The notes beneath the pieces are model-generated. The model did no database searches, was not told the DNA's origin, and saw nothing but the letters and a program-made list of their open reading frames with translations. 41,355 nt of DNA from Candidatus Bipolaricaulota bacterium (GTDB lineage Bacteria; Bipolaricaulota; Bipolaricaulia; M55B111), in assembly GCA_021735185.1 (NCBI GenBank), contig JAIPHN010000002.1, positions 1 through 41,355 of the forward strand, in the 5' to 3' direction. Position numbers and translations under genes: made by a program. Shown here piece by piece: positions 4,850 through 40,036 of this stretch (its first letter is position 1; the number at the start of each line of letters is the position of its first letter).

Positions 4850-4921
4850 ATTTTTAATTCAAAAAGTTCACAGTCAAACTTGCTAATTTTCTTAGAACTA
4901 TAGCCAGTTAGTGGGTTGGAT
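4850..4921 (+). repeat. interspersed intergenic element, partial copy F (tail module)
   Basis: CAGTTAGTG (4905-4913) followed by TTGG (4916-4919) matches the copy A1 tail CAGTTAGTGTTGG. CTTAGAACTA matches CTAGAACTA in copy E. TTCAAAAAG matches TTCAAAAACG in copy D. Confidence 0.4.
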
Positions 4922-5414
4922 CATCAAATTCGTGGCCAGGCACCCAATCCGTGAATTATTTTCAAGCAAAACAAAACCCTCTAATCCCAGGGTGATCAAT
5001 AAAATCCAGAAAATAATATTAGATCGAAAAAAACATATCAATACAACAAAACATCAGAGGGTATCCAATCCCGAGTTTCAGACGGAAAACATCTTATTAA
5101 CAACACTTAAGCCCGACAGGGAAATCACGAGTACGAAAATGTAACACTGTTTTAAGTGCCAGGAAATCGCTCAACTTCGTACTCAAAGTCATATTACTGC
5201 ATCCAGGCACCGGAGTGTAAAAAGAGGTTAAATTGTGTAAAAACGCTGAATGGATAAATAAAGTAATGGACGATGTATTACCCCTTAAAAATCAAACCCA
5301 AACAGTTATTTGTCATCCCAATCAAAATATTCTTCCACGTAATTCCCCAAAAAACATGCTCAACTAATCCCCGCTAAAGCGCGAACTTGCTTTATTGAAG
5401 TTGACTATTTTTTG

Positions 5415-7058
5415 CTAGGCCAGGTATCCGAGACCTTCCAGTCTTTCTCGAATCTCTTCGTCGTTATCTTCTTCGCTTTTTTTCTCTGATTTTCCTGGTA
5501 ATGTCATATCAGCATAGTTCGGACTATTACTTTTCCAGAATTCGTCGGAGAATACCTCTTGTCTCGGAGAACCGTCCATATAGGTTGGAATATCAAGTCC
5601 CAGAGTGTGTAGAGCTATCGGTGCCGGATCGGTAATATTCAGACCATCTACTTCCTTACCCCTTCCGTAGCTTGGTCCGTACCCGGCAAATATTCCGTTC
5701 ATTCTATGAGTACCAGTAATTGCAAAGGCTGGGATTATCGGGTCCATCGTCTTAAATACGGTTAGACCACCCGTGTCGGTTTTGAGATCCTTTGTCAAAA
5801 AAAGTATATCCGGTCCCCGGGGGGATTTTGGGCCTTGATAAACTTCCTCGTTCTTCATTGTCTTTTCTATAACTCGCTCTCCGGTATAAGGGTTTTTTAT
5901 ACTTCGAAGGTCCTGCATGATTTCTTCCCGAACCATTTTTGCCTCCTCCGGGAGCAAGCAACCCTGCTTTTCTCTGCCCTTAATGTTCAACCGCAACGCT
6001 CCAGTCACTCCGCCCCGAGAATAAGCTTTTGTGTTTTTCCAATCCACGTCATTTAACGAAAGGAACATCTTTCCCAGAATATCGCTAAAACCCTCCATTT
6101 CCCATTCGTTCCCGCGAGCCAGTGGTCCAAGCAAATCACCTATTTTGTATAAGTTTTTCTGGTTTAATCCAAGCTCCGAAGCTGCTCGTTTTATCCTTAT
6201 CCCGGCCGATTCTTTGAGCTCGAGATAACCCTCCTGAAGCAGCCAGCTATTTACGTTAAATATCCATTTAAGAGGACCAAACCCGTGGTCGGATACCAGC
6301 ATTACGTCCGTATTTTCCCTCGCCGTCGAGTTGTAAATCTTTTTGATAGCTTGCTCCACTCTCTGGTAAACTTCCAGTACCGGATTCGACCCATCATTAG
6401 CATCAGAGTCGCTCTTATGAAATAAGTGATGATTGACTGTATCGGTTTCCATAAAATAAACCATCGAAACATCCCATCCTCTCGAAGAAAGGAGGTGAAG
6501 GGCAACCTCTTCTTTGTTCTGGATCGATCCCTTGAGTTCTTCGATCCACTGCTTGTTATTAATTGCCATTTCCGCGTGGGTCGGGGCAAATCTATAATGA
6601 CCAACTTTCTCTTCAATCGATTCCCCCAATCCGGGCGGATAAGCGTAATCATCGGCCTCTTTTGGAGTTAAAACTCCAGTGGTCATGAAACCATTGATTT
6701 CTCTAGGAGGATAAGTAACTGGTACTCCGATAACACCTGATTGTTTCCCGGATTCACTTATAAGTTCCCAGAGCGTCTTGGTCTTTATGGATGAAGCATC
6801 AACCATCCCTTCGCCGTAATTTTCTCCCCCCGAACCGCCCCAGTCAAAAACGCCGTGTTTCCCGGGGTTTACTCCTGTTTGAAAGGTAGACCAGGCTGGA
6901 CCCGTGAGCGGGGGTATAGTGCTTGTCATCTCCCCCCTAACACCCTGATTGATCAGTTTATTCAGGAACGGAAGTTTTCCCTGTTCGAACCATTGATCCA
7001 GAAGATCAAAAGTAGCACCGTCCAAACCAAATATCAATAACTCTTTTTTTGCTGACAT
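5415..7058 (-). CDS. alkaline-phosphatase-superfamily type I phosphodiesterase/nucleotide pyrophosphatase family protein
   Basis: LLIFGLDGATFDLL is the N-terminal metal-ligand block typical of this family, and a VSDHGF block is also present. I prefer the ATG at 7058 (MSAKKELLIFGLDG, preceded by GGAAGAGGGG) over the track start at 7133. Confidence 0.7.
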   Translation of the reverse strand: MSAKKELLIFGLDGATFDLLDQWFEQGKLPFLNKLINQGVRGEMTSTIPPLTGPAWSTFQTGVNPGKHGVFDWGGSGGENYGEGMVDASSIKTKTLWELISESGKQSGVIGVPVTYPPREINGFMTTGVLTPKEADDYAYPPGLGESIEEKVGHYRFAPTHAEMAINNKQWIEELKGSIQNKEEVALHLLSSRGWDVSMVYFMETDTVNHHLFHKSDSDANDGSNPVLEVYQRVEQAIKKIYNSTARENTDVMLVSDHGFGPLKWIFNVNSWLLQEGYLELKESAGIRIKRAASELGLNQKNLYKIGDLLGPLARGNEWEMEGFSDILGKMFLSLNDVDWKNTKAYSRGGVTGALRLNIKGREKQGCLLPEEAKMVREEIMQDLRSIKNPYTGERVIEKTMKNEEVYQGPKSPRGPDILFLTKDLKTDTGGLTVFKTMDPIIPAFAITGTHRMNGIFAGYGPSYGRGKEVDGLNITDPAPIALHTLGLDIPTYMDGSPRQEVFSDEFWKSNSPNYADMTLPGKSEKKSEEDNDEEIRERLEGLGYLA

Positions 7059-7349
7059 TTTTCCCCTCTTCCAATGTTCAAGTAAAACTATTAAAGACCG
7101 AGAAAGGTTAACTGTTTGAGGGTCAACTATCAAAGTAACTTCTCCCCCGAAAAAGTTTTAGTTCGTTGTCTACCAAATATATATCCTGAAATCTTTGCCT
7201 GACTTCGACACCTCATCAAATTCTTGCGTGGACCCGACCGGATTGGATAAAGAAAAATCGGTATTCATAGTTACTTTTGTTTTCGCTTTGTTGAGACCTT
7301 TAGTTGCCACATTATTGCTCACCCCTTAACCTCGATATCGCTTCTTACC

Positions 7350-7976
7350 ATGAAAAAAGAAAAAATCATATTTGACCTGGACGGTGTACTTCTCGACTCC
7401 GAAGGCGACTTAGAATGGCTGGATCGGGCAATAAGGAAGGCTCTGAAAGAAATTGGGGTACCAACCACCAGGAAAAATATCGAAAAACTATATCCGGGAG
7501 GGCTAAGTAATTTTCGCGAATTAGTAGCGCACTTTCCCGTTCCCCCTGAAGAAGCCTGGCAAATCAGAGACAAATATTACGTCAGGGAAAAGCTAAAAAT
7601 GATTGAGGAAGGAAAGCTCAAGCCATTTTCGGACGTAGAACAGCTCTACAAATTGAAAAAGAGTTACTCGCTCGGCGTTATCAGCAATTCCCCCGCTGTT
7701 ATAGTTGATCATTTCGTAAAATATTACGAGTTCGAGGACCTGTTTCAGGACTGGGTCGGTAGAGGTTCTGAACTTGCCGACCTGGAAAAGATCAAGCCCT
7801 CCACACATTTCTTCCGGGAGATTCGCGCAGAGATGGGTCAGGGGAAATACACCTACATTGGTGATAGAAAAAGCGATAAGGAGTTTGCGAAAAATTCAGG
7901 GATGGAATTCATTTACCTTGCGAGGGGCGGGAAGGGCTTCGACAATCTGATTGATCTAGTCTCTCATCTACTCTGA
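7350..7976 (+). CDS. HAD-superfamily hydrolase
   Basis: HAD motif I is present (IIFDLDGVLLDS). A later GDRKSD block fits motif IV. Size is 208 aa. Confidence 0.75.
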   Translation: MKKEKIIFDLDGVLLDSEGDLEWLDRAIRKALKEIGVPTTRKNIEKLYPGGLSNFRELVAHFPVPPEEAWQIRDKYYVREKLKMIEEGKLKPFSDVEQLYKLKKSYSLGVISNSPAVIVDHFVKYYEFEDLFQDWVGRGSELADLEKIKPSTHFFREIRAEMGQGKYTYIGDRKSDKEFAKNSGMEFIYLARGGKGFDNLIDLVSHLL

Positions 7977-7987
7977 TTTTCTTATAT

Positions 7988-8959
7988 TTAATCCCACAGA
8001 TCGTATAGTTCGTCTCTTACGGGCTCCTCGTAAACCTGGTTATCAATTTCCAGTCTGGCTTCTTTCGCCTTTCGAGCTTCACCGATTACGGTCGCCGGTA
8101 TACTTTCTTGCCGGAGGAGGTCGAGAACTTCTTCGACTTCAGCAGCCATAACGCTCGCTATGAGTGCTCCCGAGCCAAATATCCTAAGTGGGTCCACGCC
8201 CATAGCACTGCAAATCTTTTTCGTATCGGAATTTACTATAATTTTATCGGAGTCAACTTCCAGAGCCATCCCCGAAGCAACAGCCAGCTCCAGGAGGCCA
8301 TCTATAATACCCCCTTCCGTCGGATCATGCATTGCGTTGGCGTAATCCCGGAAAAGCAATCCTTCCGGCAACACGCTCAATTGCTCCATCCGTTTTTCTC
8401 CACTTTCGATAATTTCGGCCGGAAGCTTTTCTTTCAGTTCGTCCGTAAAGTCAGTCGCAATAATTCCAGTTCCCTCTATTGCAGCTCCCTTAGTCAGTAT
8501 CAACTGATCCCCGGGTTTTACTCCACCAGTAGATATATAGTTTTCTGTCAGACCAAAACAGGTAAGGGCCAGAAAAGGGCGGGATATCTCGGGAACGTAC
8601 TCGGAATGACCACCGACTACAGCTATTCCCAGGTCTTTTGCAGTCCGGTCAACTTGCCGAGAAATAGTTTCCAGATCATTATCATCTCTATTCGGTAATA
8701 AATACGTGACCGTCATCCAGTCCGGTTCTGCTCCGGAAGCGGCGATATCGTTACTGGCAATATTGACCCCCAGAGTACCTATACGATCGGCCGCATAAAT
8801 AATCGGATCAGAATTTATCACCAGTACCTGCTCGCCGATATCAATTGCAGCAGTATCCTCTCCATAGGCCGGTCCTACCTGAACATCGCTGTTCACCGCA
8901 CCTATCCTGTTAAAAACGTATTTTTTTAGTTCTTCTGGATTTACCTTTCCCAGCATCAA
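7988..8959 (-). CDS. AIR-synthase-related (PurM/HypE/ThiL-fold) protein
   Basis: GEDTAAI...NSDP...ASNDIAASGAEP...VVGGHSE is the pattern of the PurM-like ATP-binding superfamily. The specific function cannot be assigned from sequence alone. Confidence 0.65.
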   Translation of the reverse strand: MMLGKVNPEELKKYVFNRIGAVNSDVQVGPAYGEDTAAIDIGEQVLVINSDPIIYAADRIGTLGVNIASNDIAASGAEPDWMTVTYLLPNRDDNDLETISRQVDRTAKDLGIAVVGGHSEYVPEISRPFLALTCFGLTENYISTGGVKPGDQLILTKGAAIEGTGIIATDFTDELKEKLPAEIIESGEKRMEQLSVLPEGLLFRDYANAMHDPTEGGIIDGLLELAVASGMALEVDSDKIIVNSDTKKICSAMGVDPLRIFGSGALIASVMAAEVEEVLDLLRQESIPATVIGEARKAKEARLEIDNQVYEEPVRDELYDLWD

Positions 8960-9071
8960 ATATCACCCCGGTTGCTCTGCTATCTTAGGAGAAATCCTGG
9001 AACTTTAAAAGATTGGAGCCGCTTATATTAGCCTCTGATTATTATCTCTTTAGCCCAGATTTTAAAATTGC

Positions 9072-9095
9072 TATGTAATTGAGTATGTAATTGAG
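9072..9095. repeat. perfect tandem direct repeat TATGTAATTGAG x2
   Basis: Read directly: 9072-9083 and 9084-9095 are identical 12-mers. They lie 113-136 nt upstream of the minus-strand AIR-synthase-like gene start (8959). Confidence 0.9.
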
Positions 9096-9122
9096 ATAGA
9101 TTGGCCTGATACAAGAGGAGAA

Positions 9123-9267
9123 CAGGGCTTTACGTCTTTTTTTTCGATGCTTTTATTGAACTACCGATTCAAGCATTATAAAAGTTTGCCAGTTGGATCA
9201 GCTGTCCAGCAAACATCAGGGGCCCCTGTCGTTAACTTATTTCTAGAACTAGTGAGTTTTTTGGAGG
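9123..9267 (+). repeat. interspersed intergenic element, copy E (diverged)
   Basis: CAGGGCTT...TTTTTTCGATGCTTTTATTGAAC aligns with A1 CGGGGCTT...TTTTTTCGGTCTTTTACAAC. TTTGCCAGTTGG..GTCCAGCA aligns with copy C TTTGCAACCAGGAGTTGGTCCAGCA. The tail is TAGTG..TTGG. Confidence 0.55.
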
Positions 9268-9475
9268 AACTATATAGAGGATCAAATAAGTGATGAAAGA
9301 AAACCGGCTAAAAAAGCTCTCAATTTTTCCGTTTGAAAATAACTACCTACAACTTAAAACAGCTATTCAACCTATCTCCGGCGTGAAAATCGCGAAACAG
9401 TCAAATGACCCCGTAAGCCAACCGTTAAATCTCCGGTGCCTGTTTATTAGAGAAATATAATCTCCGGATTATTAA

Positions 9476-10513
9476 TTAAGCCCGGTAATTCTCCGCATCT
9501 GCAAATATGTCCCTTATGTCAATGTTTCCCCCGGCAGTGGATATGCAAAGACCACAGCCAGAGCAACCATAATATCCGTGTTTTTCGTAAAATCTGTCGA
9601 ATTTGTCGTAAAACATCTCTTTAACCCGACTATCAGAGGGATCGTCGGAGTGCATTTCCTGGTGTATGTCTTTCATTGTGGCACTGTCCCATACCTTGTC
9701 TTGAATGTAAGAACCCTCTTCCGATTCCTTAAAATTTTGTAGAGTTCGGGAGGTAGGACACGCCAGTGTATAAGCAGTACAGTAACAATTCTTAGTAGCG
9801 TATTTTTTCCAGAATGGGGCGTCCCGGGGAACTTTTCCGTTTTCTGGTTTTATCTCAAAGTAAGAATTCTTTTCTTCAATTTCCCCCATCATTTTCTCTC
9901 GATGAGCCTCTCTCAGTTCTATCTGCTTGTCCGTGGCTTCGGTTAGAAGATGATCGTACCTATCCGCTATTTCGTGACCCTTAACCGAGTTTTTGCCCAC
10001 CTCGATCAGCATATCACCATAATGAGGCAGAGTGGAGATATTAAGGTCAAAGCCGTCTTCAGGATAGGGCTGTCCCCCGACCTTGTTACAGAAACAGGGC
10101 TCGGCTATCTCCAGACAGTCAACGGAAATAATAGTTGTTTCTTCTCTCCGCTTCTTATACAGAGGATAAGAAAAATCCCCTTCTTCAAAAGCCTTGTCGA
10201 GAACTTTTAGAGCGTTAATGTCACAGGATTTATAACCAAGCAATGCCAGGCTCTTGCCTTCGCCGCCCGGCTGACCTTCCGGGAAGGTATGCATTATATT
10301 ATTGGGAGGAAAGAAAAAGTCAAAACAAAGTGCGTCAGTTCTCCGACAATTTAGTTGGAAACGCGTCTCCTGGGGGTCCCATTTGACGAATTCCCATCTA
10401 CTCCTATTTCCTTCGGACTGTTGACACTGAACGGGCAAAAAGATGTAATTGTCTTCAGCCAAATTATTGACAAGTTTCCTCAGGTCCCACTCGGAAAGAC
10501 TATAAATTTCCAT
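9476..10513 (-). CDS. AsrA/HydB-like Fe-S protein with degenerate cluster motifs (tentative)
   Basis: The layout resembles anaerobic sulfite reductase subunit A-type proteins: GYKSCDINALKVLD, then a CFC motif (EPCFCNKVGG), then C-terminal Cys clusters (CYCTAYTLACP, CSGCGLC). These clusters do not form canonical CxxCxxCxxxCP motifs. A strong promoter and an SD lie upstream. Confidence 0.4.
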   Translation of the reverse strand: MEIYSLSEWDLRKLVNNLAEDNYIFLPVQCQQSEGNRSRWEFVKWDPQETRFQLNCRRTDALCFDFFFPPNNIMHTFPEGQPGGEGKSLALLGYKSCDINALKVLDKAFEEGDFSYPLYKKRREETTIISVDCLEIAEPCFCNKVGGQPYPEDGFDLNISTLPHYGDMLIEVGKNSVKGHEIADRYDHLLTEATDKQIELREAHREKMMGEIEEKNSYFEIKPENGKVPRDAPFWKKYATKNCYCTAYTLACPTSRTLQNFKESEEGSYIQDKVWDSATMKDIHQEMHSDDPSDSRVKEMFYDKFDRFYEKHGYYGCSGCGLCISTAGGNIDIRDIFADAENYRA

Positions 10514-10631
10514 GATACCCCCCTCATTCTTTGGGTTAAGTTACTCTTTCAAATCACAACTTTACTATTAAGAGATATAACACTACTAAACCCTGGTAAA
10601 TTCTTGTGGAAATATTCACGTTCTCAATCTC

Positions 10632-10659
10632 ATTATAGCATAGTTACTACCATTTGCAA
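10632..10659 (-). promoter_or_regulatory. sigma70-type promoter for the AsrA-like gene
   Basis: On the minus strand: TTGCAA (10659-10654), 16 nt, then TATAAT (10637-10632) with a TGC prefix. This is about 120 nt upstream of the start at 10513. Confidence 0.6.
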
Positions 10660-10763
10660 AATGATCGTGGGGTGTTTTTTTGCCATATAGCGCTCGAAAT
10701 TGCGGTAAATTGACGGCAATTAATAAAAAAAGACTCCTTTAAAATTTCATCAAAATTGTTGAT

Positions 10764-10897
10764 GCAGTCAAGAATTCCGGCCAAGGGACGGGGCTTGTAG
10801 AAAGTCCCTTTTTAATAGTTTTTTCGGTCTTTTACAACACGAGACCCAGCATCCCCAGGGCAAGCCCTGGGGGGTTCTCAGTTAGTGTTGGTAAAAG
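10764..10897 (+). repeat. interspersed intergenic element, copy A1 (short form without internal hairpin)
   Basis: Four exact blocks are shared with copy D about 29 kb away: GGGGCTTGTAGAAA, CGAGACCCAGCA, CATCCCCAGGGCAAGCCCTGGG and GGTTCTCAG. The tail is TTGGTAAAAG. An 8-bp hairpin lies at 10853-10872. Confidence 0.9.
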
Positions 10898-11625
10898 TGT
10901 ACTAAGATTTCATTTGTGGCCTTGATTCTGGCTATTTAAATTTCAAAATGTTCTAAAGAATACAATGTATGTGAACTTTAAATATTAAAAAGCGAACAAA
11001 CAATTCAATCATTTAAGAGTCTTTGAGTTCTACAACCTGCTTCACTTTAATAAAAAGGAACTGAAAAGAAGTACTAGTTTAAATACTCCGATACTAGCCA
11101 GACACTGTCGGAACTTTGTTCTTGACAGTTGGTCAAAAAAGGAGTTAGTCAAGACAGTCCTAAGGCAAAAATCCAACCAAATAGGGCCCCAACAACTCTT
11201 CTGTTTTTTTAGTGACCTCACGTAATCCCCTATTTCAGGATTACAACATTTGACCTGTTAATAAGGATGATCTCGAGAAAAGTCACGATCCCAGATATTG
11301 CCTAGCTTCCGGTATGGCCGACTGTTTAAAGAGTAAGTTAAACCTTGAACTAAGTGGCTTAATTGACCATTAAAAGGTAATGGTTTTTTCGATCTTCCGA
11401 AAATTACTCAGGTAATTACGAAAAGATAAAGGGACTGGTGTTTTCCATTAATGACTTCCTGATGATTTTGGGCTTTGGCGTTCTTCTGAAACTTCTCGAC
11501 GAAACCCTTACGGAACTGAACTATTTCACGAGCCGGTTAACCGAAATAACAGATCTTTAAAAGCTCAGACCCGAGAAGCCCTGGTCCGAGGCAGGTTCAC
11601 CTTCGGGGGACTATATTGAATCATA
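10898..11625 (+). repeat. cluster of decayed copies of the same element (about three, eye-aligned)
   Basis: At 11015-11165, GTCTTTGAGTTCTACAAC and CCAGACACTGTCGGAACTTTGTTC resemble the D left arm plus loop start CCAGCAGTCAATTCGGAACTGGCTTTGTAC. At about 11190-11330, TGTTTTTTTAGTGACC..ATTACAACATTTGACCTG is seen. At about 11420-11625, TCTTTAAAAGCTCAGACCC..AAGCCCTGG..GGTTCAC is seen. Confidence 0.35.
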
Positions 11626-11900
11626 TTAACCAATTGCAAAAAGAGTTAGAGTTCCAATCAGAGGAAAAACATGCTACCGTTTTGCTGAAAAACCCTGTGT
11701 TTCCTCGAGGTGAGATCAGGTAAAATAGTAGTAGGTAATAGTTAAAGAATTGAGCCCGTAAAATATAAAAAGTCAGAACTACAGGGGTTGTTGACCGGGA
11801 ATTTAATAGAATTTATCCTAATTTGTTGTTATTATTGAAATCATACTTTCATCAAGTTAGCAGATCTATTAAATAACATTAGGAGGTGGGTTTTTTAACA

Positions 11901-12908: not shown

Positions 12909-12934
12909 GGCTATACTAAAATCCGCTGAAAACT

Positions 12935-13049
12935 GAAGGGCTTATATAGAAAGCCAGATAGGCCAAAAGTTAAGAGCTCGAAAACGAAGATTATGACCAA
13001 CGAATTTCTACGAAGTTTTACTTCGTCGGTGATTTTTGGTATTCTAAGC
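12935..13049 (+). repeat. interspersed intergenic element, copy H (compact)
   Basis: AAGGGCTTATATAGAAAGCC aligns with A1 CGGGGCTTGTAGAAAGTCC. GATTATGACCAA aligns with B GATGACCCA. CGGTGATTTTTGGTA aligns with B CGGCGATTTTGGTA. A hairpin ACGAAGT-TTT-ACTTCGT (13010-13026) occupies the position of the GC hairpin. Confidence 0.6.
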
Positions 13050-13366
13050 TAATTTGTATAATAATTAATTTCGCTGCGATTCCCCTTTCTCAATTATATT
13101 CGATCGATTTTGGCAATGCTTTCTAAGTACCGCCGTTTGACATACTCTCATCTTACACCATGCACACTTAAACTCAAAAGAAAGGCATCAGGATAAGTAC
13201 TCGAACATTCTGCTACCAGGAGATTCGCGATAAGTTCTGCTTGATACAATTTCAAAGATTTTGGGTGGCGTGCTGCGATATATTTTGGGGAAAGATCCTT
13301 TTTTCAATATCTCCATAATCTTACGAGCAGGTTAGCACAAACACTATCGGCCGTGTTTTTATATAC

Positions 13367-13395
13367 TTGACATAATATCTCATTTTTGTTATTTT
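13367..13395 (+). promoter_or_regulatory. sigma70-type promoter of the LacI-family gene / galactoside locus
   Basis: TTGACA (13367-13372), 17 nt, then TATTTT (13390-13395). Confidence 0.55.
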
Positions 13396-13402
13396 GATTG
13401 CG

Positions 13403-13435
13403 TACGTTACCGGTAATGTTTACGGTAACGTTATC
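13403..13435. promoter_or_regulatory. candidate LacI-family operators (palindromes) between promoter and start codon
   Basis: TTACCGGTAA (13407-13416) is a perfect 10-bp palindrome. GGTAACGTTATC (13424-13435) is a CG-centred near-palindrome of the AACGTT type used by LacI/GalR repressors. CGTTACCG-N10-CGGTAACG is also an inverted repeat. Confidence 0.5.
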
Positions 13436-13446
13436 AAAAGGAGGTA

Positions 13447-14454: not shown

Positions 14455-14488
14455 AAAGTTAAGTGGGGGGTGGTAACTGGCATAATTC

Positions 14489-14518
14489 TCGCAATCTTTT
14501 TTCACGGCGAGGTATAAT
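14489..14518 (+). promoter_or_regulatory. possible internal promoter for the ABC transporter genes
   Basis: TCGCAA (14489-14494), 18 nt, then a perfect TATAAT (14513-14518). It lies 27 nt upstream of the binding-protein start. Confidence 0.4.
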
Positions 14519-14544
14519 ACCTGAATATAATAGGAGGTATAAAA

Positions 14545-15810: not shown

Positions 15811-15835
15811 ACCACGGAGGAAAATTAGATAGCCG

Positions 15836-21070: not shown

Positions 21071-21221
21071 TGGAGGAATTCCGATTTTTTCGGTTTCTTT
21101 AGAGACACATTTAGTTCGATTGGTTAAAGCCATTAAGGCAAATCAGGAGAACTTACAAACTCCTCTGGCGGGCCACGTTAACGAGGGGTGCAAATACAGT
21201 GATTCAATTCAAAGCAGAATA

Positions 21222-21473
21222 GGTCAAGAACCCCGCCCAAAGTGACGGGGCTGTTGAAAAATAAATTTAACTACGAACTTAGGCCTTTTACAAAAGATGA
21301 CCCAGCAGTCAATCGAGGAAGTTTTCGAATTTATATACGGTATAAGAAATGAACGCATAGCTAATCACTAGGCGCTTTTAAGGATAATGTACTCGATTGA
21401 CTGCTGGACAAGAACCGGCCGATTCATCCCCGCAGCAAGCTACGGGGTTTTCTCGGCGATTTTGGTAAAAAGC
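21222..21473 (+). repeat. interspersed intergenic element, copy B (long form)
   Basis: 5' GGTCAAGAA plus hairpin CCCCG..CGGGG, then CTGTTGAAAAA and TTTTACAAAAGATGACCCAGCA. Perfect 16-bp arms lie at 21302-21317 and 21392-21407 around 74 nt. The hairpin CCCCGCAG-CAAG-CTACGGGG lies at 21428-21447. The tail is TTGGTAAAAAG. Confidence 0.85.
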
Positions 21474-21558
21474 CTGTTTAGTTTGCAAACACTAAAGAGC
21501 GACAAAACTAGACGATAAATTTAAAAACTTAATTGCATATCAGGTAGAGGTACAAAAT

Positions 21559-21672
21559 ATGAACAAGATCATTGAAGAGAAGACAGTCGGCGGCCTAAGG
21601 AAGAAGATAGCCGAAAAGGACGACGGAAGGATAATTGTTTACTACGATCGAACACCCAATAAGGAGGAATAA
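21559..21672 (+). CDS. 37-codon ORF resembling the N-terminal extension of long-form GalT proteins
   Basis: Sequence is MNKIIEEKTVGGLRKKIAEKDDGRIIVYYDRTPNKEE. The DGRxxVYYD block resembles the LADGRELVYYD N-terminus I recall from actinobacterial GalT. SD AGAGG lies 8 nt upstream. The TAA stop overlaps the galT ATG (TAATG). The frame differs from galT. Confidence 0.5.
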   Translation: MNKIIEEKTVGGLRKKIAEKDDGRIIVYYDRTPNKEE

Positions 21673-23884: not shown

Positions 23885-24126
23885 GAGACCTCGTAAAGTT
23901 AACACTAGATTAATCGAGAGATTGATTTTGCAACCAGGAGTTGGTCCAGCACCCAGATGAGCTCCGGAACATGGATCAAGATTTTTACTTCACTATTGTA
24001 TGGGCTGCCACGCTCGTTCAGTGGTAGATTATACTTCCAGGTTACTTTTCTCATCTGGGTGCTGGTTGAAAGTCTCGAGAGAGCAAGTTGGTCTTAACCT
24101 TTTAGAGGTCACCAACTGGGTAAAGC
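23885..24126 (+). repeat. interspersed intergenic element, copy C (diverged long form)
   Basis: GGTCCAGCACCCAG aligns with D GACCCAGCACCCAG. Perfect 16-bp arms CCAGCACCCAGATGAG (23946-23961) and CTCATCTGGGTGCTGG (24050-24065) enclose 88 nt. The tail is CTGGGTAAAGC. Confidence 0.65.
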
Positions 24127-24340
24127 AATTAGATTTCTCAAAAGGTAGCTAGTTCATCTTGTATACTCATTTAGAAGTTAGTCACGAGTGAGAAAATGGC
24201 ACAACTTAGTTAAACTTGGTTGGGCGAGAGGAGAGCGCACATTTTAGGTTGTAATAAACCGTAACATCTATTAACCTCATTTTGGAAACTTGAGTATTTA
24301 TATCCACTTTTATTCCAAAAAACACAGAAGGTGAGATACG

Positions 24341-30483: not shown

Positions 30484-30516
30484 TTCCTGGTATTTTCTAA
30501 AACCTTTGATTGCGAT

Positions 30517-30550
30517 AACCCTCCCGGTTTCGCCGGGAGGGTTATTATTT
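30517..30550. terminator. bidirectional rho-independent terminator between convergent hflC and coaX
   Basis: AACCCTCCCGG (30517-30527), loop TTTCG, then CCGGGAGGGTT (30533-30543), an 11-bp perfect stem. It is followed by ATTATTTT on the plus strand and preceded by an A/T-rich tract for the minus strand. Confidence 0.8.
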
Positions 30551-31315: not shown

Positions 31316-31405
31316 AAGCAACACCAGCTCCTCTAATTACTCAAACCAGCTATCATTACTGTCCAATCTCAAATCCGATTTTCAGGTTTGAGCTTGAAAA
31401 TACGG

Positions 31406-32581: not shown

Positions 32582-32714
32582 GATATCACCTTATTTCAAG
32601 TTATTTGTGACCAGTTAACGATAAATTAAGATATTGTGATATTGTCCTCACCAGAACGCCAATTTGCAAGCACACAATTATTAAAAAAACAAAAGACTTC
32701 AGTTATCTTATCGT

Positions 32715-32920
32715 GTTAAAACCAAAACCAGCTCAATTATTGCCCTTAGTTGAAAAACATAGCCCCAGCATCAGACGGGATAAGGCCAAACTCCCTATTC
32801 CGCCAGGTAATGGACTTTTCCATCGAATAGGCACAGTACGAGATAATTGCCCTAAGTATCAAAATACGGAAAAAATTGACCTCGGCTCGAGCGAGCGCGA
32901 AGCTAAAACCTGGGATACGC
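32715..32920 (+). repeat. interspersed intergenic element, copy G (diverged, no long hairpin)
   Basis: GTTGAAAAACATAGCCCCAGCATC aligns with D CTTCAAAAACGCGAGACCCAGCA and A1 CCCAGCATC. GTTAAAACCAAAAC aligns with D TTTACAACCAAAAAAC. The tail CTCGAGCGAG..AAGC..CTGGGATACGC resembles C CTCGAGAGAGCAAG..CTGGGTAAAGC. Confidence 0.55.
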
Positions 32921-32996
32921 TTTAGGTAATAACGCTGTCGTGCCGGTTAAGGTTTTATCGTGAGACGAAATGTATCGTTCAGAGCGGGTCCGGGCC

Positions 32997-33620: not shown

Positions 33621-33814
33621 ATCTATATCCTCTGCAACACCCTTTTTTTGGTTTTCTCCTTTTTGTAAGATAAATTATAAGGATAATTCTATGAATGACA
33701 AATATATTGCCATAATTGCCAACTTGTTAACTCAGTAACTTTATCCCGCGACTCTTTGCAAAGAATTGGCCGTTCTAATATCCTTAATTGAAAATTATAG
33801 GAGGTGCTGACCTA

Positions 33815-34885: not shown

Positions 34886-34905
34886 AAAAGAAAAAAGGAG
34901 GAACC

Positions 34906-35820
34906 ATGGTTAAAATATTGATATCCGATCCTATCGCCGAGGAAGGTGTCGAAAAATTAGAAGATGCGGGATTCGAGCTTGACCACAAATACGATCTTTC
35001 CCCTGAAGAACTCAAGCAAGAAATCGGACAATACGAAGGTATAGTCGTACGTTCGGCCACCAAACTGAGGGCTCCGATACTGGACGAGGCAGATAACCTG
35101 GAAATAGTCGTCCGAGCCGGAGTCGGGCTGGACAATATTGATCTCGATCATGCCGACGAATTGGGTATTGAGGTCCGGAACACCCCGGAAGCTAGCTCCA
35201 ATTCCGTGGCCGAACTCGCCCTGGGCCACATGTTCTCGCTGGCCCGTGATATACCCCGGGGTACCGCTTCCCTGAAGGAACAAAAATGGATCAAAAGCGA
35301 TCTCAAAGGTACCGAGCTGGCGGGAAAAACACTGGGAATTATCGGAGCCGGCAGGATTGGGAGCTTGGTCGCTCAGAAGGCGACAGCATTAGGTATGGAG
35401 GCGCTGGCTTACGATAAGTATATTGACGAGGCACCCGTCGAAGAAATAGAGATGGTCGAGATGGATGAGTTGCTGGAAAAGTCCGATTACGTTACCCTGC
35501 ACATACCCTTCGTGGCTTCGGAAGGAGCCACTATAGCCGAAGCGGAATTGAAAAAGATGAAGGATTCCGCCTGTATCGTAAACTGTGCTCGGGGTGGCGT
35601 AGTGGATGAAGACGCTATTGCAAAAGCGCTGAAGAACGACTGGATCGGAGCGGCAGCACTGGACGTATTCACAGAAGAGCCTCCGTCCAAGGAAGAGTTG
35701 CTAAAATTCGACAATCTCTCTCTAACACCCCACCTGGGCGCGTCAACGGTTGAAGCCCAGAGAAGGGTCGGAACCCAAACAGCGGACGAATTAATGAATT
35801 TCTTTGGCAAGGAGGAATAA
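34906..35820 (+). CDS. serA: D-3-phosphoglycerate dehydrogenase (short form, no ACT domain)
   Basis: GIIGAGRIGSLVA is the GxGxxG motif. CARGGVVDE and TPHLGAST carry the catalytic Arg and His contexts of 2-hydroxyacid dehydrogenases. Confidence 0.85.
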   Translation: MVKILISDPIAEEGVEKLEDAGFELDHKYDLSPEELKQEIGQYEGIVVRSATKLRAPILDEADNLEIVVRAGVGLDNIDLDHADELGIEVRNTPEASSNSVAELALGHMFSLARDIPRGTASLKEQKWIKSDLKGTELAGKTLGIIGAGRIGSLVAQKATALGMEALAYDKYIDEAPVEEIEMVEMDELLEKSDYVTLHIPFVASEGATIAEAELKKMKDSACIVNCARGGVVDEDAIAKALKNDWIGAAALDVFTEEPPSKEELLKFDNLSLTPHLGASTVEAQRRVGTQTADELMNFFGKEE

Positions 35821-35822
35821 TC

Positions 35823-37124
35823 ATGGCTGAAGTTTACCCCTTTGAAGGTTTCAGGTACAATCCGGAAAAAGTCGGCGATATTAATCGTGTAGTTAGCCCC
35901 CCTTACGACAAAATCGATGAAGAGGAAAGAGAGGACCTCGCCAATAACAGCATTTACAACATAGTAAGAATAATTTTGAGTAAAGCGAGAGACGAAGGAG
36001 AAGATAAATACGAAGTAGCGGCAAAAAACCTCCAGGATTGGATGGACGAAGGTGTGCTGGAAAGGGATAACGAACCGGCTTTTTACGCCTACTACCAGGA
36101 GTACGAAGCCGAAGGCGAAAAGAAAGTCCGAAAAGGTTTTATCGGCCTCGGCAAGATAGAGGAAGGAGAAGGCGTCAAGGCACATGAAGAAACGATGTCG
36201 GGACCGAAGGCCGACAGACTGCGATTGCTTCGTGCAACTGAAGCGAACTTTGGCCAAATATTTATGCTCTATTCGGATCCGGAGAACCAGGTTACTCAGG
36301 TGATGGACGAGTCGAGAGATGACAACCCGTTAGTCAAAGTAAAAGACAAGCACCGGAACACGCACAAAATATGGAAATTAACTGACGAGGAAGTCATTGC
36401 AAGTATAAAAGAGGCAATGGCCGACAAAAGCCTCTACATCGCGGACGGACATCACAGATACGAGACTGCACTGAATTATTGCAATGAGTGCCGCGAGAAA
36501 GGCTGGGAATCGCCGGATACCGGTGGTTTTGACAATAGGATGATGTCCTTCGTCAACGTGGACGATCCCGGTTTGAGCATTCTCGCAACTCACAGGCTAC
36601 TGCACGACGTGAAAAACTTTAAGCCCCATGGCGTACTCGACAGTGCGAGGGAGCACTTCAGGATCTCTCGTTACAATGAAAGAGACGACCTCCTCGAAAA
36701 ACTGGATGAAGATAGAGGAGAAAAGCACACCTTCGGCTACAGAGCAAAGGATGACAAGGCTTACTGGTCCATGACACTTCAGGACGAATCAGTCATGGAA
36801 GAGCTGCTTCCGAATAAATCCTCGGCCTGGCAAAAGCTCGACGTAGCTATTCTGCACAAGTTAGTCCTGGAAAACTATCTTGGCATAGACGAGGAAGCAC
36901 TCGAGGAGAAACGAAACCTCGATTACATAAGGGGACGAGAAAAAGCCCTCGACATGCTCAAAGAAGGTGGATATCAGGGAGCCTTTATCATGAATCCAAC
37001 CAGGATAGATCAGGTCAAGGAAATTGCCGATAAAGGAGAAAAGATGCCCCAAAAGTCCACCGATTTCTATCCCAAGTTACTGACGGGTCCGGTCCTGCAC
37101 AAATTAAAGATCGATAAAGGTTAG
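35823..37124 (+). CDS. DUF1015-family protein
   Basis: YIADGHHRYETAL block, about 430 aa. The start is 3 nt after the serA stop, and the stop is 4 nt before the alaS start. Confidence 0.7.
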   Translation: MAEVYPFEGFRYNPEKVGDINRVVSPPYDKIDEEEREDLANNSIYNIVRIILSKARDEGEDKYEVAAKNLQDWMDEGVLERDNEPAFYAYYQEYEAEGEKKVRKGFIGLGKIEEGEGVKAHEETMSGPKADRLRLLRATEANFGQIFMLYSDPENQVTQVMDESRDDNPLVKVKDKHRNTHKIWKLTDEEVIASIKEAMADKSLYIADGHHRYETALNYCNECREKGWESPDTGGFDNRMMSFVNVDDPGLSILATHRLLHDVKNFKPHGVLDSAREHFRISRYNERDDLLEKLDEDRGEKHTFGYRAKDDKAYWSMTLQDESVMEELLPNKSSAWQKLDVAILHKLVLENYLGIDEEALEEKRNLDYIRGREKALDMLKEGGYQGAFIMNPTRIDQVKEIADKGEKMPQKSTDFYPKLLTGPVLHKLKIDKG

Positions 37125-37127
37125 GCT

Positions 37128-39740
37128 ATGGAGTGGACAACTGATAAACTAAGAGAAGAATATCTAAGGTATTTTGAAGAGAAAGATCATCTGAGGCTGG
37201 AGGGGTCAGGGTTGATTCCCGACGACCCCTCCATGTTATTTACTTCCGCGGGGATGGTACAATTTAAGGACGTCTTCTGGGGGCACCGTGAACCGGAGGT
37301 TGAGAGAGCCACAACCTGCCAGAAGTGTTTTCGAGCAAACGATATCGAACGCGTCGGAGAAACCTGGTACCATCATACTTTCTTCGAGATGCTCGGTAAT
37401 TTTTCTTTTGGTTCTTACTTTAAAAGAGGCGCGATAAAGCTCGCCTGGGAATTTGTTACCGATGTACTCGGTTTTGAGGAGGAAAACCTCTGGGTCTCTG
37501 TCTACGAGACGGATTCCGAAGCTTACCAGATATGGAGCGACGAAATTGGAGTTCCGGAAAGCAAGATAGCCAGGCTCGGTAAGGACGAAAACTGGTGGGG
37601 TCCGGTGGGAGATTCCGGCCCCTGTGGCCCGGATTCCGAGATATTTTACGACGCCGGGGAGGAGTATAGCTGTGGTCCCGACTGTGACGGGGTAGCCTGT
37701 GATTGTAATAGGTTCAATGAACTCTGGAATCTCGTATTTACCGGCTATCAGATGAACAGAGAAGGGGAAGTAAGGGAACTGGAAAGGCAGAACATCGATA
37801 CTGGCATGGGCCTGGAACGAGTAGCATCCGTGCTTCAGGGTGTGGATTCCGACTTTGAAATAGACATCTTTCGCCCGATTATCGCTAGCGTCAAGGAGAA
37901 AATCGGCCTCAATTCTTACACGCCAGAACAAACCAGCTACGTCCATAGAATCGCGGATCATCTCCGGGGCGCGGCATTCCTCATATCAGAAGGAGTGATA
38001 CCCGCCAACGAAGGAAGAGGATACGTTCTGAGGCGAATAATCCGGCGAGCCGTCCAGGCTGGCGACAGGCTAGGAATGAAAGAGACGTTTCTGACTTCCT
38101 CGCTGCCGCCGATTATGGATACTATGGGGGAAACTTACCCGGAACTGGTCGAACGAAGGGATTTAATCGAGAACGTCATAGAACACGAAGAGGGGAGTTA
38201 CAGAAATACGCTGAACGAGGGAGAACAGCTTTTTTATCGCCTGGCCTCGGATTTACAGGAGAACAATCAGTCCGAAATTCCCGGCAAGGACGCCTTCAGG
38301 TTATACGATACTCACGGACTACCGTTGACTTTTCTGGAAGAGCTGGCAGAAGAAGAAGACCTGGCTATCGACATGGAAGGTTTCGAGCAAGAAATGGAAC
38401 AGCAGAGGAAACGATCCAGAAGCGAACAGGAGGACAGAGGAGAACTTCACGAAGTAGTTGACGTTCCGGAAACGGAATTCCTCGGGTACGAAAAAGACAG
38501 AGCAGAAGCCCGCGTTATAGCCCTGATCAAGGACGGCGAGAAAATCAATCGACTTGAAGAAGGGGACGAGGGAATCTTAGTTCTAGACAGGACTCCGTTT
38601 TACGCGGAGGCCGGTGGTCAGGTAAGCGACGTTGGAAGGATCCTCGACGGAGAGAGCCGGACCCGAATCAAGCAAGTGGAAGAGAGGAACGGGATCTACT
38701 ATCACGAAATAGACGTATCTACCGGGAACATCGTCGAAGGAGACAGAGTGACGGCGGAAATAAATACGGATAAAAGGAGGGGGACTGAGAGAAATCATAC
38801 TGGAACTCACCTGCTCCACCAGGCGCTCCAGCAGGTACTGGGGTCCCACGTAGTCCAATCCGGTTCCAAAGTAGCTCCCGCGGAGTTGAGGTTTGACTTC
38901 AATCACTTCGAAATAACGACCGAAGAAGAACAGGAAAAAATCGAAGACATCGTCAATGAAATCATTTTATCCGACAGGAACGTCTCAGTGGACTGGGTGG
39001 AAAGCGTGGAAAAAGCAAAAGAACTCGGCGCTTCTGCTCACTTCGAGGAGGAATATCGGGGCAAGGAAGAACTGAGAACTATTACCGTTGAAGAATTCAG
39101 TAAAGAGCTCTGCGGGGGGACTCACGTAAACAGGACCGGCCAGATCGGAGGTTTTGCGATCAAATCAATAGAGACGATTGCCTCCGGCATCCGCAGGATA
39201 AGAGCCGTAACGGGTAAAAACTTCTTATCTGACTACCGCGATCAACGGGTCCTTTTGAAACAATTAGCGGATATGGCAGGCTCCGGTGAATCCGACCTCG
39301 TAGAAAGATTCAATTCGATTCTGACACAGGAGGAAAACCTGAGAGACGAACTGGAAAGAAAAACTGAAAGGTTACTTGCCACCTTAAAGGAAAAAATTCT
39401 CCAGGAAGTTGAGAGGGAGGAAGGAGTCGAGATAGTAGCTAACAGACCAAACGTCGATGCATCCGATTTGAAGCGACTGGCCGATCACGTTGAGGCCGAG
39501 ATCGACGGCGTAGTGATTCTCGGCACAACCGAGGAGGATAGTGCTTCAGTAGTCTGCAAGGTTTCCGAATCACGTACCCAGTTATTAAATGCAGGAAAGA
39601 TCGTCAGAGAGGCTTCTGCAGTACTGGGTGGCGGAGGAGGCGGTTCTGCTGGTTTCGCCCAGGGCGGTGGCCCGGAAAAGGAAAAACTCGGCCGGGCTCT
39701 GCGTTCGGGGGTAAATATCGTCAGGAGTAGCTTAGATTAA
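37128..39740 (+). CDS. alaS: alanyl-tRNA synthetase
   Basis: FTSAGMVQFK and WWGPVGDSGPCGPDSEIFYD are class II AlaRS motifs. HTGTHLLH is the editing-domain motif. A Gly-rich C-terminal DHHA1-type region is present. Confidence 0.95.
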   Translation: MEWTTDKLREEYLRYFEEKDHLRLEGSGLIPDDPSMLFTSAGMVQFKDVFWGHREPEVERATTCQKCFRANDIERVGETWYHHTFFEMLGNFSFGSYFKRGAIKLAWEFVTDVLGFEEENLWVSVYETDSEAYQIWSDEIGVPESKIARLGKDENWWGPVGDSGPCGPDSEIFYDAGEEYSCGPDCDGVACDCNRFNELWNLVFTGYQMNREGEVRELERQNIDTGMGLERVASVLQGVDSDFEIDIFRPIIASVKEKIGLNSYTPEQTSYVHRIADHLRGAAFLISEGVIPANEGRGYVLRRIIRRAVQAGDRLGMKETFLTSSLPPIMDTMGETYPELVERRDLIENVIEHEEGSYRNTLNEGEQLFYRLASDLQENNQSEIPGKDAFRLYDTHGLPLTFLEELAEEEDLAIDMEGFEQEMEQQRKRSRSEQEDRGELHEVVDVPETEFLGYEKDRAEARVIALIKDGEKINRLEEGDEGILVLDRTPFYAEAGGQVSDVGRILDGESRTRIKQVEERNGIYYHEIDVSTGNIVEGDRVTAEINTDKRRGTERNHTGTHLLHQALQQVLGSHVVQSGSKVAPAELRFDFNHFEITTEEEQEKIEDIVNEIILSDRNVSVDWVESVEKAKELGASAHFEEEYRGKEELRTITVEEFSKELCGGTHVNRTGQIGGFAIKSIETIASGIRRIRAVTGKNFLSDYRDQRVLLKQLADMAGSGESDLVERFNSILTQEENLRDELERKTERLLATLKEKILQEVEREEGVEIVANRPNVDASDLKRLADHVEAEIDGVVILGTTEEDSASVVCKVSESRTQLLNAGKIVREASAVLGGGGGGSAGFAQGGGPEKEKLGRALRSGVNIVRSSLD

Positions 39741-39794
39741 CACGAATAGCTCAGTTACGAGATAAGTTTTCACTTTTTCAGGAACTATCTGAGA

Positions 39795-40036
39795 AGTCAA
39801 TTACCCCGCCCTTCCGCGCGGGGCTTGTAGAAAAACCCCTTTACAACCAAAAAACTACATACTTCAAAAACGCGAGACCCAGCACCCAGCAGTCAATTCG
39901 GAACTGGCTTTGTACCTGTATTGAACTTTAATGAGCAGGGCGAATTGACTGCTGGGTGCTTTATATCAAGTTAAGTTAACCAGCGGCTCATCCCCAGGGC
40001 AAGCCCTGGGTGGTTCTCAGCTATTATTGGCAAAAG
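39795..40036 (+). repeat. interspersed intergenic element, copy D (long form, archetype)
   Basis: AGTCAATTA plus a hairpin at 39804-39823, then GGGGCTTGTAGAAA, TTTACAAC and CGAGACCCAGCA. Perfect 20-bp arms lie at 39881-39900 and 39941-39960 around 40 nt. The hairpin CCCAGGG-CAAG-CCCTGGG lies at 39993-40010, followed by GGTTCTCAG and TTGGCAAAAG. Confidence 0.9.

Follow-up and report, generated by a model that had tools for sequence, protein, structure and literature searches.

The window, by which we mean the whole 41-kb stretch of Candidatus Bipolaricaulota DNA that was analysed, contains three significant copies of a non-coding repeat (A1, B and D) and a probable relic of a further one (C). 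Copy B sits in the gal operon, with a GH4 alpha-galactosidase gene on one side and galT on the other, and copy D occupies the convergent spacer that separates alaS from dnaN. A1, B and D are 124-242 nt long (elements of the family overall, 124-270 nt) and only about 70-90% alike. No ORF of at least 100 aa in the window ORF list overlaps any of the three, a tblastn search for tnpB in the copies gave no match, and no tnpA, tnpB, iscB or RRXRR/HNH protein is encoded within the window. The initial annotation of this DNA had described a modular repeat with no credible ORF and with exact blocks common to A1 and D. The blocks are present in the sequence, the statement on ORFs holds, and for A1, B and D the repeat is confirmed as real, modular and non-coding. 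The features of the copies are as follows.

10767..10890, minus strand: copy A1, short and core-deleted, 124 nt (nhmmer, two pieces, E 9e-18 and 4e-10)
10767-10803, minus strand: right end of A1 (right-end covariance model, E 5e-4)
10839-10885, minus strand: left end of A1 (left-end covariance model, E 1e-9)
10891..10894, minus strand: target motif TTAC at the left end of A1 (plus strand GTAA), read from the sequence
21223..21464, minus strand: copy B, full-length, 242 nt (nhmmer, E 3e-58)
21223..21259, minus strand: right-end module of B (right-end covariance model, E 1.7e-5)
21302..21407, no strand assigned: long internal hairpin of B (fold; 16-bp stem CCAGCAGTCAATCGAG / CTCGATTGACTGCTGG with a variable loop)
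21414..21460, minus strand: left-end module of B (left-end covariance model, E 2e-15)
21465..21468, minus strand: target motif TTAC at the left end of B
23885..24126 (about), minus strand: copy C, probable decayed relic (local alignment, long hairpin, synteny)
39796..40029, minus strand: copy D, full-length, 234 nt (nhmmer, E 8e-41)
39796..39833, minus strand: right-end module of D (right-end covariance model, E 1e-6)
39881..39960, no strand assigned: long internal hairpin of D (20-bp stem)
39978..40024, minus strand: left-end module of D (left-end covariance model, E 2e-10)

An nhmmer profile built from 11 family copies recovered A1, B and D with E values between 1e-10 and 1e-58, and gave no further window match at E<=10. 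Covariance models of the left end and of the right end, the latter built without window sequences, each found exactly three sites in the window, all on the minus strand. Their next-best matches had E values of at least 0.14 (left end) and at least 0.4 (right end). The initial annotation had counted at least nine copies, placed in nearly every long spacer. Only A1, B, D and the probable C stand, so that the count is three plus one probable relic and the statement about the spacers is false. The other proposed copies (E, F, G and H) and a supposed cluster at 10898-11625 failed every test: they were missed by nhmmer and by both covariance models, and their local alignment scores were no different from those of shuffled sequence. 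C was likewise unmatched by nhmmer, and under the refutation criterion set in the initial annotation only A1, B and D are left in the family.

Read on the minus strand, which corresponds to the transposon top strand, the element consists of a TTAC target, a left end, a variable core and a right end. The left end comprises an 18-nt linker ending in the guide AAAG (or AAAA), a hairpin and then ATGAATC. The core is usually a long hairpin. The right end is made up of the guide CAAG, then a hairpin, then a linker of 8 nt whose last bases are the cleavage motif TTGAC. Of the six modules numbered in the initial annotation, modules 5-6 are the left-end hairpin and modules 1-2 the right end. The two subterminal hairpins are imperfect and resemble each other (left, CCCCGTAG-CTTG-CTGCGGGG; right, CCCCGTCC..GGGCGGGG), and the right-end covariance model also matched the left-end hairpin of B (E 0.023).

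The individual copies vary on this plan. In B, an outer stem GCCGA/TCGGC at the left end surrounds GAGAAAA, the hairpin CCCCGTAG-CTTG-CTGCGGGG and ATGAATC alike, and the minus strand of the right end reads ..CAACAG-CCCCGTCACTTTGGGCGGGG-TTCTTGAC|, with the terminal cleavage motif TTGAC. B departs from the consensus by pairing an AAAA guide with a TTAC target. In D, the flanking motif is TTGC, not TTAC, and ATGAGCC replaces ATGAATC. In A1 both the long internal hairpin and the ATGAATC segment are missing, and two C·A mismatches at its foot damage the right-end hairpin. Given these departures from the consensus rules and the likeness of only ~70-90%, the window copies may be old and immobile.

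The end hairpins show covariation. In the left-end alignment, 88.5% of cells are paired, against 76.6% after shuffling, and 66 cells carry double changes, against 26.8. The pairing drops to 37-47% when the 3' partners are slid by 1-3 columns. Compensatory changes also occur in the stem of the long hairpin in other copies (CACTCAATCGAG, CACTCACTTGAG), and single-sequence folds of the copies are more stable than those of shuffles (z -2.6 to -4.6). The plus-strand reading of the initial annotation is contradicted by the wobble pairs. On the minus strand, G·T outnumbers A·C by 14 to 1 in the left-end hairpin and by 22 to 6 in the right-end hairpin, and it is the minus strand that is structured and active.

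The stable folds and the compensatory changes in the stems also speak for the reading of the initial annotation, in which the copies are a structured non-coding or cis-regulatory RNA of the host, unrelated to transposition and kept on one strand by selection. However, the wobble pairs favour the opposite strand, the genomic contexts of the copies are mutually unrelated, and syntenic relatives are without copies. The core is variable, mosaic and dispensable, as in A1 and in L007, one of the public loci (L numbers) that we retrieved with patterns derived from the window copies. Moreover, both ends are transposon ends that elsewhere adjoin tnpB or iscB. A host RNA of this kind is already largely refuted, and we regard it as highly improbable.

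Several features of the termini are those of the IS200/IS605 family. The termini GTCAAG.. and ..TTTTGG do not form inverted repeats, and no direct repeat or target-site duplication flanks A1, B or D. A classical (DDE-derived) MITE was rejected for the same two reasons, and integron attC sites, terminators and leaders were ruled out on anatomy. TTAC flanks nine of 12 family copies outside the window, as well as A1 and B. The target and the guide covary: TTAC occurs with AAAG in 9 loci and TTAT with AAAA in 34 loci, with 6 exceptions, among them B. At the right end, guide and cleavage site covary in the same manner (CAAG with TGAC, GAAG with TCAC).

The same logic is known from IS608 of Helicobacter pylori, the mechanistic prototype of the IS200/IS605 family. 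Its published target is TTAC (PMC5027513), its guides are GL = AAAG and GR = GAAT, and its left-end linker is 19 nt long (PMC3597680). As in the window elements, TTAC lies 5' of the left end, an AAAG guide stands at the foot of the left-end hairpin (with a linker of 18 nt here), the right-end cleavage motif follows the hairpin after a short linker, guide and cleavage site pair by the same logic, and the element is oriented on the lagging-strand template. In contrast to the window elements, IS608 contains the genes tnpA and tnpB, has hairpins of unrelated sequence, and uses TCAA/GAAT instead of TGAC/CAAG as right-end cleavage site and guide.

Public loci revealed gene-carrying relatives of both ends. 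The likeness of their end motifs is partly by construction, because the retrieval patterns came from the window copies. The independent evidence is the adjacency of tnpB and iscB genes. In L005, L008 and some 20 metagenome loci, the left-end motif was found 130-540 nt upstream of a tnpB of 350-410 aa, and on the other strand than the one read in the initial annotation. These genes were identified as tnpB by the Pfam domains OrfB_IS605, Cas12f1-like_TNB and HTH_OrfB, and by tblastn. The right-end sequence GTCAA-CCCCGCC..GGCGGGG-CTTGTA, reverse-complemented, lies directly 3' of tnpB in L060, L061, L066, L067, L069 and L072, and the tnpB elements with this arrangement come from viral contigs. L060 is a single tnpB enclosed by both end types. 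The left-end pattern extended with GGC had no match in viral contigs. Such IS1341-type, tnpB-only elements (L005, L008, L060) have the same left end as the window elements (GAGAAxx, a CTTG-loop hairpin, ATGAATC and the outer stem), the same right-end architecture and a TTAT or TTAC target. They differ by the tnpB gene itself and by a full guide-RNA region that overlaps the 3' end of tnpB.

A second kind of relative is represented by L031, whose ends are almost identical to those of B, with an identical 41-nt left-end core. Between both ends it carries iscB (RRXRR and HNH), preceded by a HEARO RNA (RF02033; E 1.7e-10, at only 57 bits compared with the curated threshold of 83 bits). In this locus, the right-end module forms the 5' end of the IscB guide RNA (Rfam HEARO). 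A protein search with the L031 IscB returned none labelled Bipolaricaulota among the best 120 matches, and inspection of the three closest loci showed ordinary IscB/HEARO elements. The HEARO consensus starts with GUCAacuaCCCCcgccc..gGGGGCuUg, and the sequence of modules 1-2 matches its first ~30 positions. The 5' end of HEARO corresponds to the right end of the window elements together with the first 35-45 nt (GTCAA, a CCCCGCC hairpin and GGGGCTTG-TAG). The window copies, however, have neither iscB nor the remaining ~170 nt of the HEARO scaffold.

Both ends of the element are homologous to those of tnpB- or iscB-carrying elements of the IS200/IS605 family, whereas the initial annotation could match it to no RNA family or repeat class known to its author. 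In the Rfam comparison proposed there, modules 1-2 match the start of the HEARO consensus, and the window itself has no match at curated thresholds in a window-wide scan. Membership in the HEARO/IscB guide RNA family was rejected, as there is no match at the curated 83 bits and no iscB downstream in the window. Permissive Rfam scans of L008 and L002 returned only noise.

With high confidence we assign A1, B, D and probably C to the palindrome-associated transposable elements (PATEs), i.e. protein-less non-autonomous members of the IS200/IS605 family, because no transposase, tnpB or iscB is found in the window. A1 is a short core-deleted PATE, and B and D are full-length ones. In gene-carrying relatives, the sequence that the right end overlaps belongs to a guide RNA, to its 5' end in the case of IscB and to its 3' end in the case of TnpB, and window copies could also supply a guide RNA to a nuclease in trans. 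It has been stated that PATEs "often encode omega RNAs" for use by TnpB in trans (PMC10055086). A rival reading takes the copies as functional stand-alone guide-RNA genes, whose transcripts would be loaded into a nuclease from another locus, for cleavage of vacated donor sites. The copies would be transcribed from the plus strand if IscB-type and from the minus strand if TnpB-type, and take their guide from the DNA flanking the right end. Such a function is compatible with the PATE assignment, the point at issue being an intact RNA function. It is favoured by the match of the right-end module to the 5' end of the HEARO/IscB guide RNA and to the 3' end of tnpB-linked elements, by an internal TTGAC/TGAC able to pair with the GTCAA at the terminus in the manner of stem P1 of HEARO, and by a TCGTAG motif common to the copies and to the guide-RNA regions of tnpB elements. 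On the other hand, copy B (21150-21550), the window copy tested, has no HEARO or other Rfam match at E<=10, the likeness to HEARO is confined to the first ~45 nt with the rest of the scaffold absent, and in D, A1, L004 and L015, which form one subfamily, the P1-like pairing is reduced to 3 bp. Further, the 45 nt preceding the right-end hairpin are AT-rich and form weak stems, and neither the window nor the related Bipolaricaulota loci examined contain a nuclease gene. We consider an intact guide-RNA gene unlikely.

REP/BIME-type repeats maintained by a domesticated RAYT transposase are a further candidate. REPs are hairpins related to IS200/IS605 ends and handled by Y1 enzymes (PMC3333891), and like the window elements they are intergenic hairpins recognised by Y1 HUH enzymes. 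But REPs are single, short, clustered hairpins and not two-ended elements with a target motif. The present elements measure 124-270 nt, and their two ends differ from each other and keep a fixed left/right order, with a TTAC flank and a terminal TTGAC, and their ends match bona fide tnpB and iscB elements. They occur in a single orientation and do not form inverted clusters of ~20-40 nt units, and no RAYT gene was seen in the 41-kb window. A REP/BIME origin thus has very little probability.

The PATE assignment extends to C less firmly. Its best local alignment score is 27, against 20.3 +/- 2.3 for shuffles, a value reached by 3 of 200 shuffles. At the junction just ahead of the long hairpin, 24 of 31 bases match. 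C has a 16-bp long hairpin of the same kind as other copies and falls within ~390 nt missing from syntenic relatives, but neither end module was found by the left-end or right-end covariance model. C is a probable decayed relic, with borderline statistical support. The spacers holding B and C differ from those in syntenic relatives. Searches for exact matches to two proteins of the window found none. A clean empty site was not recovered among the closest of these relatives because they are too diverged (~75% identical; 73-79% protein identity), and the exact element boundaries therefore rest on copy alignment and analogy. Some signs of mobility are seen among the copies. Flanks are unrelated among the window copies and among L001-L015, L006 and L009 are one element with different flanks, and several Bipolaricaulota genomes have at least two copies each.

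The core of the element has been deleted in A1 and L007, and core deletions have been described for PATEs (PMC3119063). D shares its hairpin core with L014, a locus of a different metagenome-assembled genome. The long internal hairpin might instead be a separate small mobile repeat nested in the PATE, for which the SMR-A elements targeting PATEs in Haloquadratum are a precedent (PMC3119063). It has inverted termini of 16-20 bp and an interior of 45-130 nt, it is missing from A1 and L007, and L014 combines B-like ends with a D-type hairpin core. However, the outer 6 bp of the stem (CCAGCA) are still present in the short copies, so deletion from a long form fits better than insertion. In addition, the hairpin is seen only in a PATE context, except in C, which retains the PATE junction. 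We regard a separate nested repeat as quite improbable. Nesting of a second IS200/IS605 unit bounded by GTCAAT/ATTGAC was rejected, as other subfamilies have CTCAAT or CTCACT at that position. The idea that PATEs of Bipolaricaulota are minimal guide-RNA carriers, or that the hairpin core is an independent nested mobile unit exchanged between PATEs, is speculative and doubtful. As carriers, the right-end module, which is the first stem or stems of an IscB/TnpB guide RNA, and the long hairpin with its exchangeable core might form a shortened, undescribed scaffold, and a nuclease encoded elsewhere might use it.

PATEs are presumably moved in trans by a Y1 TnpA. A Y1 (HUH) TnpA encoded elsewhere in the genome would bind both hairpins on single-stranded DNA and cut 3' of TTAC and 3' of TTGAC, and the top strand would be excised as a circle. 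The circle would then be inserted 3' of a TTAC where the lagging-strand template is single-stranded, at the replication fork. Insertion on this template would therefore fix the orientation of the copies relative to the direction of replication. No TnpA gene was seen in the parts inspected, 41 kb of the host genome and stretches of 4-8 kb from related genomes, and mobilisation by TnpA is inferred, as is any present-day activity.

The orientation of the copies is consistent with this scheme. The top strand lies on the minus strand in A1, B, D and C, and the two copies in L001 also share one orientation. Agreement among three or four copies is in itself weak statistics (chance 1/4 to 1/8). The gene dnaN lies on the minus strand at the right end of the window, and GC3 skew decomposed by gene strand has a replication component of -0.068 (p = 0.0004). 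This decomposition replaced the GC skew of the whole window, which was uninformative as it merely tracks gene orientation. On the basis of GC3 skew and dnaN orientation, with the position of the origin inferred, the minus strand is the lagging-strand template. The top strands of all copies (a small sample of 3-4) lie on this predicted template. The initial annotation had maintained that all copies point the same way, independently of the neighbouring genes and locked to the chromosome strand. Identical orientation is correct for the three or four real copies, and independence from neighbouring genes holds. The strand lock is upheld by GC3 skew and dnaN, which put the active strands on the lagging-strand template. 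The shared orientation of the copies is explained by their kinship with the single-strand DNA transposons of the IS200/IS605 type, insertion being presumably strand-specific at the replication fork.

PATEs have been described in Haloquadratum walsbyi and Geobacillus stearothermophilus (PMC3119063; PMC10055086). Like the window elements, they are protein-less, have near-terminal palindromes similar to the IS605 type, lack terminal inverted repeats and target duplications, and are heterogeneous among copies, with core deletions that leave versions consisting only of the ends. A hypersaline community and a right end overlapping guide-RNA sequence are likewise shared. In contrast to these, the window elements belong to a different host phylum (Candidatus Bipolaricaulota) and a different sequence family, and have a conserved long internal hairpin with an exchangeable core.

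By the initial annotation's own terms, the claimed novelty of the element is removed. A candidate "new RNA family" disappears, and the element is placed in a class of mobile DNA that is well understood. The practical value is modest: with the two end models, elements of this kind can be annotated, and masked when non-coding RNAs are sought. The elements document PATEs of the IS200/IS605 type in an uncultured, hypersaline lineage of Candidatus Bipolaricaulota. They also provide a small, clean example of two known rules, namely that the orientation of an element reports the direction of replication, and that metagenomic copies directly display the covariation of target and guide, TTAC with AAAG and TTAT with AAAA.

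The modular repeat described in the initial annotation is real. Three copies were confirmed in the window, A1 (10767-10890), B (21223-21464) and D (39796-40029), all on the minus strand. The exact sequence blocks named for A1 and D were present in both, and B is a full-length, more diverged copy. An nhmmer profile built from 11 copies of the family matched A1, B and D at E-values of 1e-10 to 1e-58, with no other match in the window at E ≤ 10. Covariance models of the left end (LE) and the right end (RE, built with the window sequences excluded) found three sites apiece in the window (runners-up at E of at least 0.14 and at least 0.4).

The repeat had been divided into six modules read on the plus strand, and a pattern scan with the module 5 hairpin revealed the same element in several Bipolaricaulota genomes, some of them labelled "Thermotogae", and in metagenome contigs. 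Many sample names of these loci look hypersaline, and several of the genomes carry two or more copies whose flanks are unrelated. In loci from other phyla found by the same scans, the module 5 motif was the sole shared part and lay upstream of a tnpB gene (Pfam OrfB_IS605, Cas12f1-like_TNB and HTH_OrfB_IS605) on the opposite strand; tblastn placed tnpB beside the motif in about 20 further loci. Therefore, modules 5 and 6 represent the LE of IS200/IS605 elements and are properly read on the minus strand of the window. Modules 1-2 are the RE: their reverse complement occurred directly 3′ of tnpB in viral contigs, and in one locus (L060) a single tnpB was bracketed by both end types. In the metagenome locus L031 (Ga0207714_1002547), the LE core was identical to that of B and the RE nearly so, and the cargo was iscB (RRXRR and HNH) preceded by a HEARO RNA (E = 1.7e-10). 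This closest gene-carrying relative found is a complete IscB element (8161-9700; 401-aa IscB), its HEARO RNA scoring 57 bits against an Rfam threshold of 83 bits. The HEARO consensus start, GUCAacuaCCCCcgccc..gGGGGCuUg, corresponds to modules 1-2. The repeat had been thought to match no known class, which does not hold for either of its ends. The window encodes no tnpA, tnpB or iscB, and copy lengths run from 124 to 242 nt. With their homologous ends, they thus fit the definition of palindrome-associated transposable elements (PATEs), short gene-less elements of the IS200/IS605 type (PMC3119063; PMC10055086). The repeat is therefore a set of IS200/IS605 PATEs in Candidatus Bipolaricaulota, known as a class and new as a sequence family. 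The same LE motif was also seen in a protein-less derivative of about 290 nt (L029/L039), in one keeping the last ~60 tnpB codons (L054/L055), and in a GC-rich protein-less type with a TTAC target and AAAG guide (L018/L056/L010). In L010 the motif directly adjoins a run of N, probably marking a break in the assembly at the repeat.

In the minus-strand reading, the element has the following parts.

TTAC target, minus strand: outside the element, before the LE boundary
LE linker, minus strand: 18 nt, with AAAG at its end
LE hairpin, minus strand: CCCCGTAG-CTTG-CTGCGGGG, then ATGAATC
Core, minus strand: between ATGAATC and CAAG
RE, minus strand: CAAG, then the RE hairpin
RE linker, minus strand: 8 nt, with TTGAC at its end, then the element boundary

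The LE folds as an extended hairpin whose outer stem is GCCGA/TCGGC in the window family and GTCTGA/TCAGAC in elements of the tnpB family. This fold is supported by covariation: 88.5% of cells were paired against 76.6% after shuffling, double-change cells numbered 66 against 26.8, and pairing fell to 37-47% once the 3′ partners were shifted by 1-3 columns. G·T wobbles outnumbered A·C mismatches in the minus-strand reading (14:1 in the LE hairpin, 22:6 in the RE hairpin), which indicates that minus is the structured strand, as expected for a top strand handled as ssDNA by the transposase TnpA. Together with the tnpB orientation, these counts reverse the earlier plus-strand reading. Target and guide also covaried among the collected loci (TTAC with AAAG in 9, TTAT with AAAA in 34, 6 exceptions), as did RE guide and cleavage motif (CAAG with TGAC, GAAG with TCAC).

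In gene-carrying relatives, a guide RNA is transcribed across the RE, on the initial annotation's plus strand for the IscB type and on the minus strand for the TnpB type. The PATEs retain a TCGTAG motif, the hairpin at the terminus and a pairing of GTCAA with TTGAC that resembles stem P1 of HEARO, and could on these grounds be functional guide RNAs acting in trans. However, the rest of both the IscB and TnpB scaffolds is absent, copy B had no match in Rfam, and the P1-like pairing is only 3 bp in the subfamily including A1 and D, making such a function improbable.

At least nine copies had been proposed. In Smith-Waterman comparisons with the family (200 shuffles each), the claimed copies E, F, G and H and the first half of a claimed cluster (10898-11625) scored within the shuffle distribution. 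The score of the second half was due to a single match, equalled by 2 of 200 shuffles: the 19-nt TAATGGTTTTTTCGATCTT (~11378-11396, in a long spacer), identical at 17/19 positions to the T-rich interior of A1 (~10813-10831), either by chance or through duplication of a small fragment. The borderline copy C (~23885-24126) shares 24/31 bases with the junction preceding the long hairpin, carries a similar hairpin and lies within ~390 nt absent from syntenic relatives; the covariance models recognised neither end, and C is probably a relic. The supported family in the window therefore comprises three copies and one probable relic in a single orientation. The insertion specific to the window, lying between galK and a NifU-like gene, runs ~110 nt past C (24127-24245), where plus-strand GTCAC|GAGTGAGAAAA superficially resembles the RE/LE junction of tnpB-type elements, a likeness that may be chance. 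The unusually long spacers (0.4 to 1.4 kb) at 4726-5414, 8960-9475, 10514-11885, 12909-13446 and 32582-32996 contained no ORF of at least 100 aa and did not resemble the PATE family significantly; they may hold pseudogene debris, other repeats or RNAs.

A1 is a D-type copy with a deleted core and a damaged RE hairpin; the short form L007 is independent of it. In B, the target is TTAC and the guide AAAA; D has TTGC at the target and ATGAGCC in place of ATGAATC. Likeness among copies is 70-90%. These copies look like old insertions and may no longer be mobile. In the long internal hairpin, compensatory changes keep the stem while the core varies; it could be a guide-RNA stem remnant, a small nested repeat like SMR-A (PMC3119063), or simply tolerated sequence. 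L014 (CAZRDU010000058.1) is a mosaic, B-like in its LE and RE parts with the inner long hairpin of D, which points to PATE subfamilies having recombined or to a hairpin core that can be exchanged. An interior segment of A1 and B, CTTTTAC(A)AC or CCTTTTACAAAAG, pairs with the LE terminus, the flanking TTAC and the T-rich flank (A1 10829-10840 with 10884-10897; B 21283-21298 with 21458-21474), so that a single-strand fold closes across the element boundary. The B relative L014 has the same interior with another flank, and the complementarity is thus partly coincidence.

The window is ordinary chromosome (the tRNA synthetase gene alaS and an ileS-like one, SSB, dnaN, a gal/ABC-transporter operon and the like), its nearest protein homologues being from Candidatus Bipolaricaulota (73-79% identity). 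In the gal operon of Bipolaricaulota relatives (L075-L079), the GH4 gene is followed by an aldose-1-epimerase gene (~346 aa), and this by a 38-aa ORF and galT. At 21071-21671 this gene is absent, with ~490 nt of non-coding sequence containing PATE B instead; the small ORF that precedes galT (~21559-21670) is conserved.

Like IS608, which inserts 3′ of TTAC (PMC5027513) and carries an AAAG guide at the LE hairpin foot, a 19-nt linker and the right-end guide GAAT (PMC3597680), these PATEs have the TTAC target and AAAG guide, with an LE linker of 18 nt; their RE guide is CAAG. End anatomy, covariation and strand suggest that a Y1 (HUH) TnpA acting in trans would mobilise them by "peel and paste". 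IS200/IS605 elements leave and enter the lagging-strand template, resulting in a genomic orientation bias (PMC5027513). At the right edge of the window lies dnaN (40131-41312, minus strand). GC skew at third codon positions, split by gene strand, was -0.036 for plus-strand and +0.100 for minus-strand genes, giving a plus-strand replication component of -0.068 (p = 0.0004). The minus strand thus has leading-strand composition and serves as the lagging-strand template; from dnaN and the skew, the window is probably near the origin, on a replichore replicated right to left. All PATE top strands lie on this template, in a small sample and with the origin position inferred. The repeat is therefore locked to the chromosome strand, as initially proposed, and the known lagging-strand-template mechanism of IS200/IS605 elements accounts for this lock.
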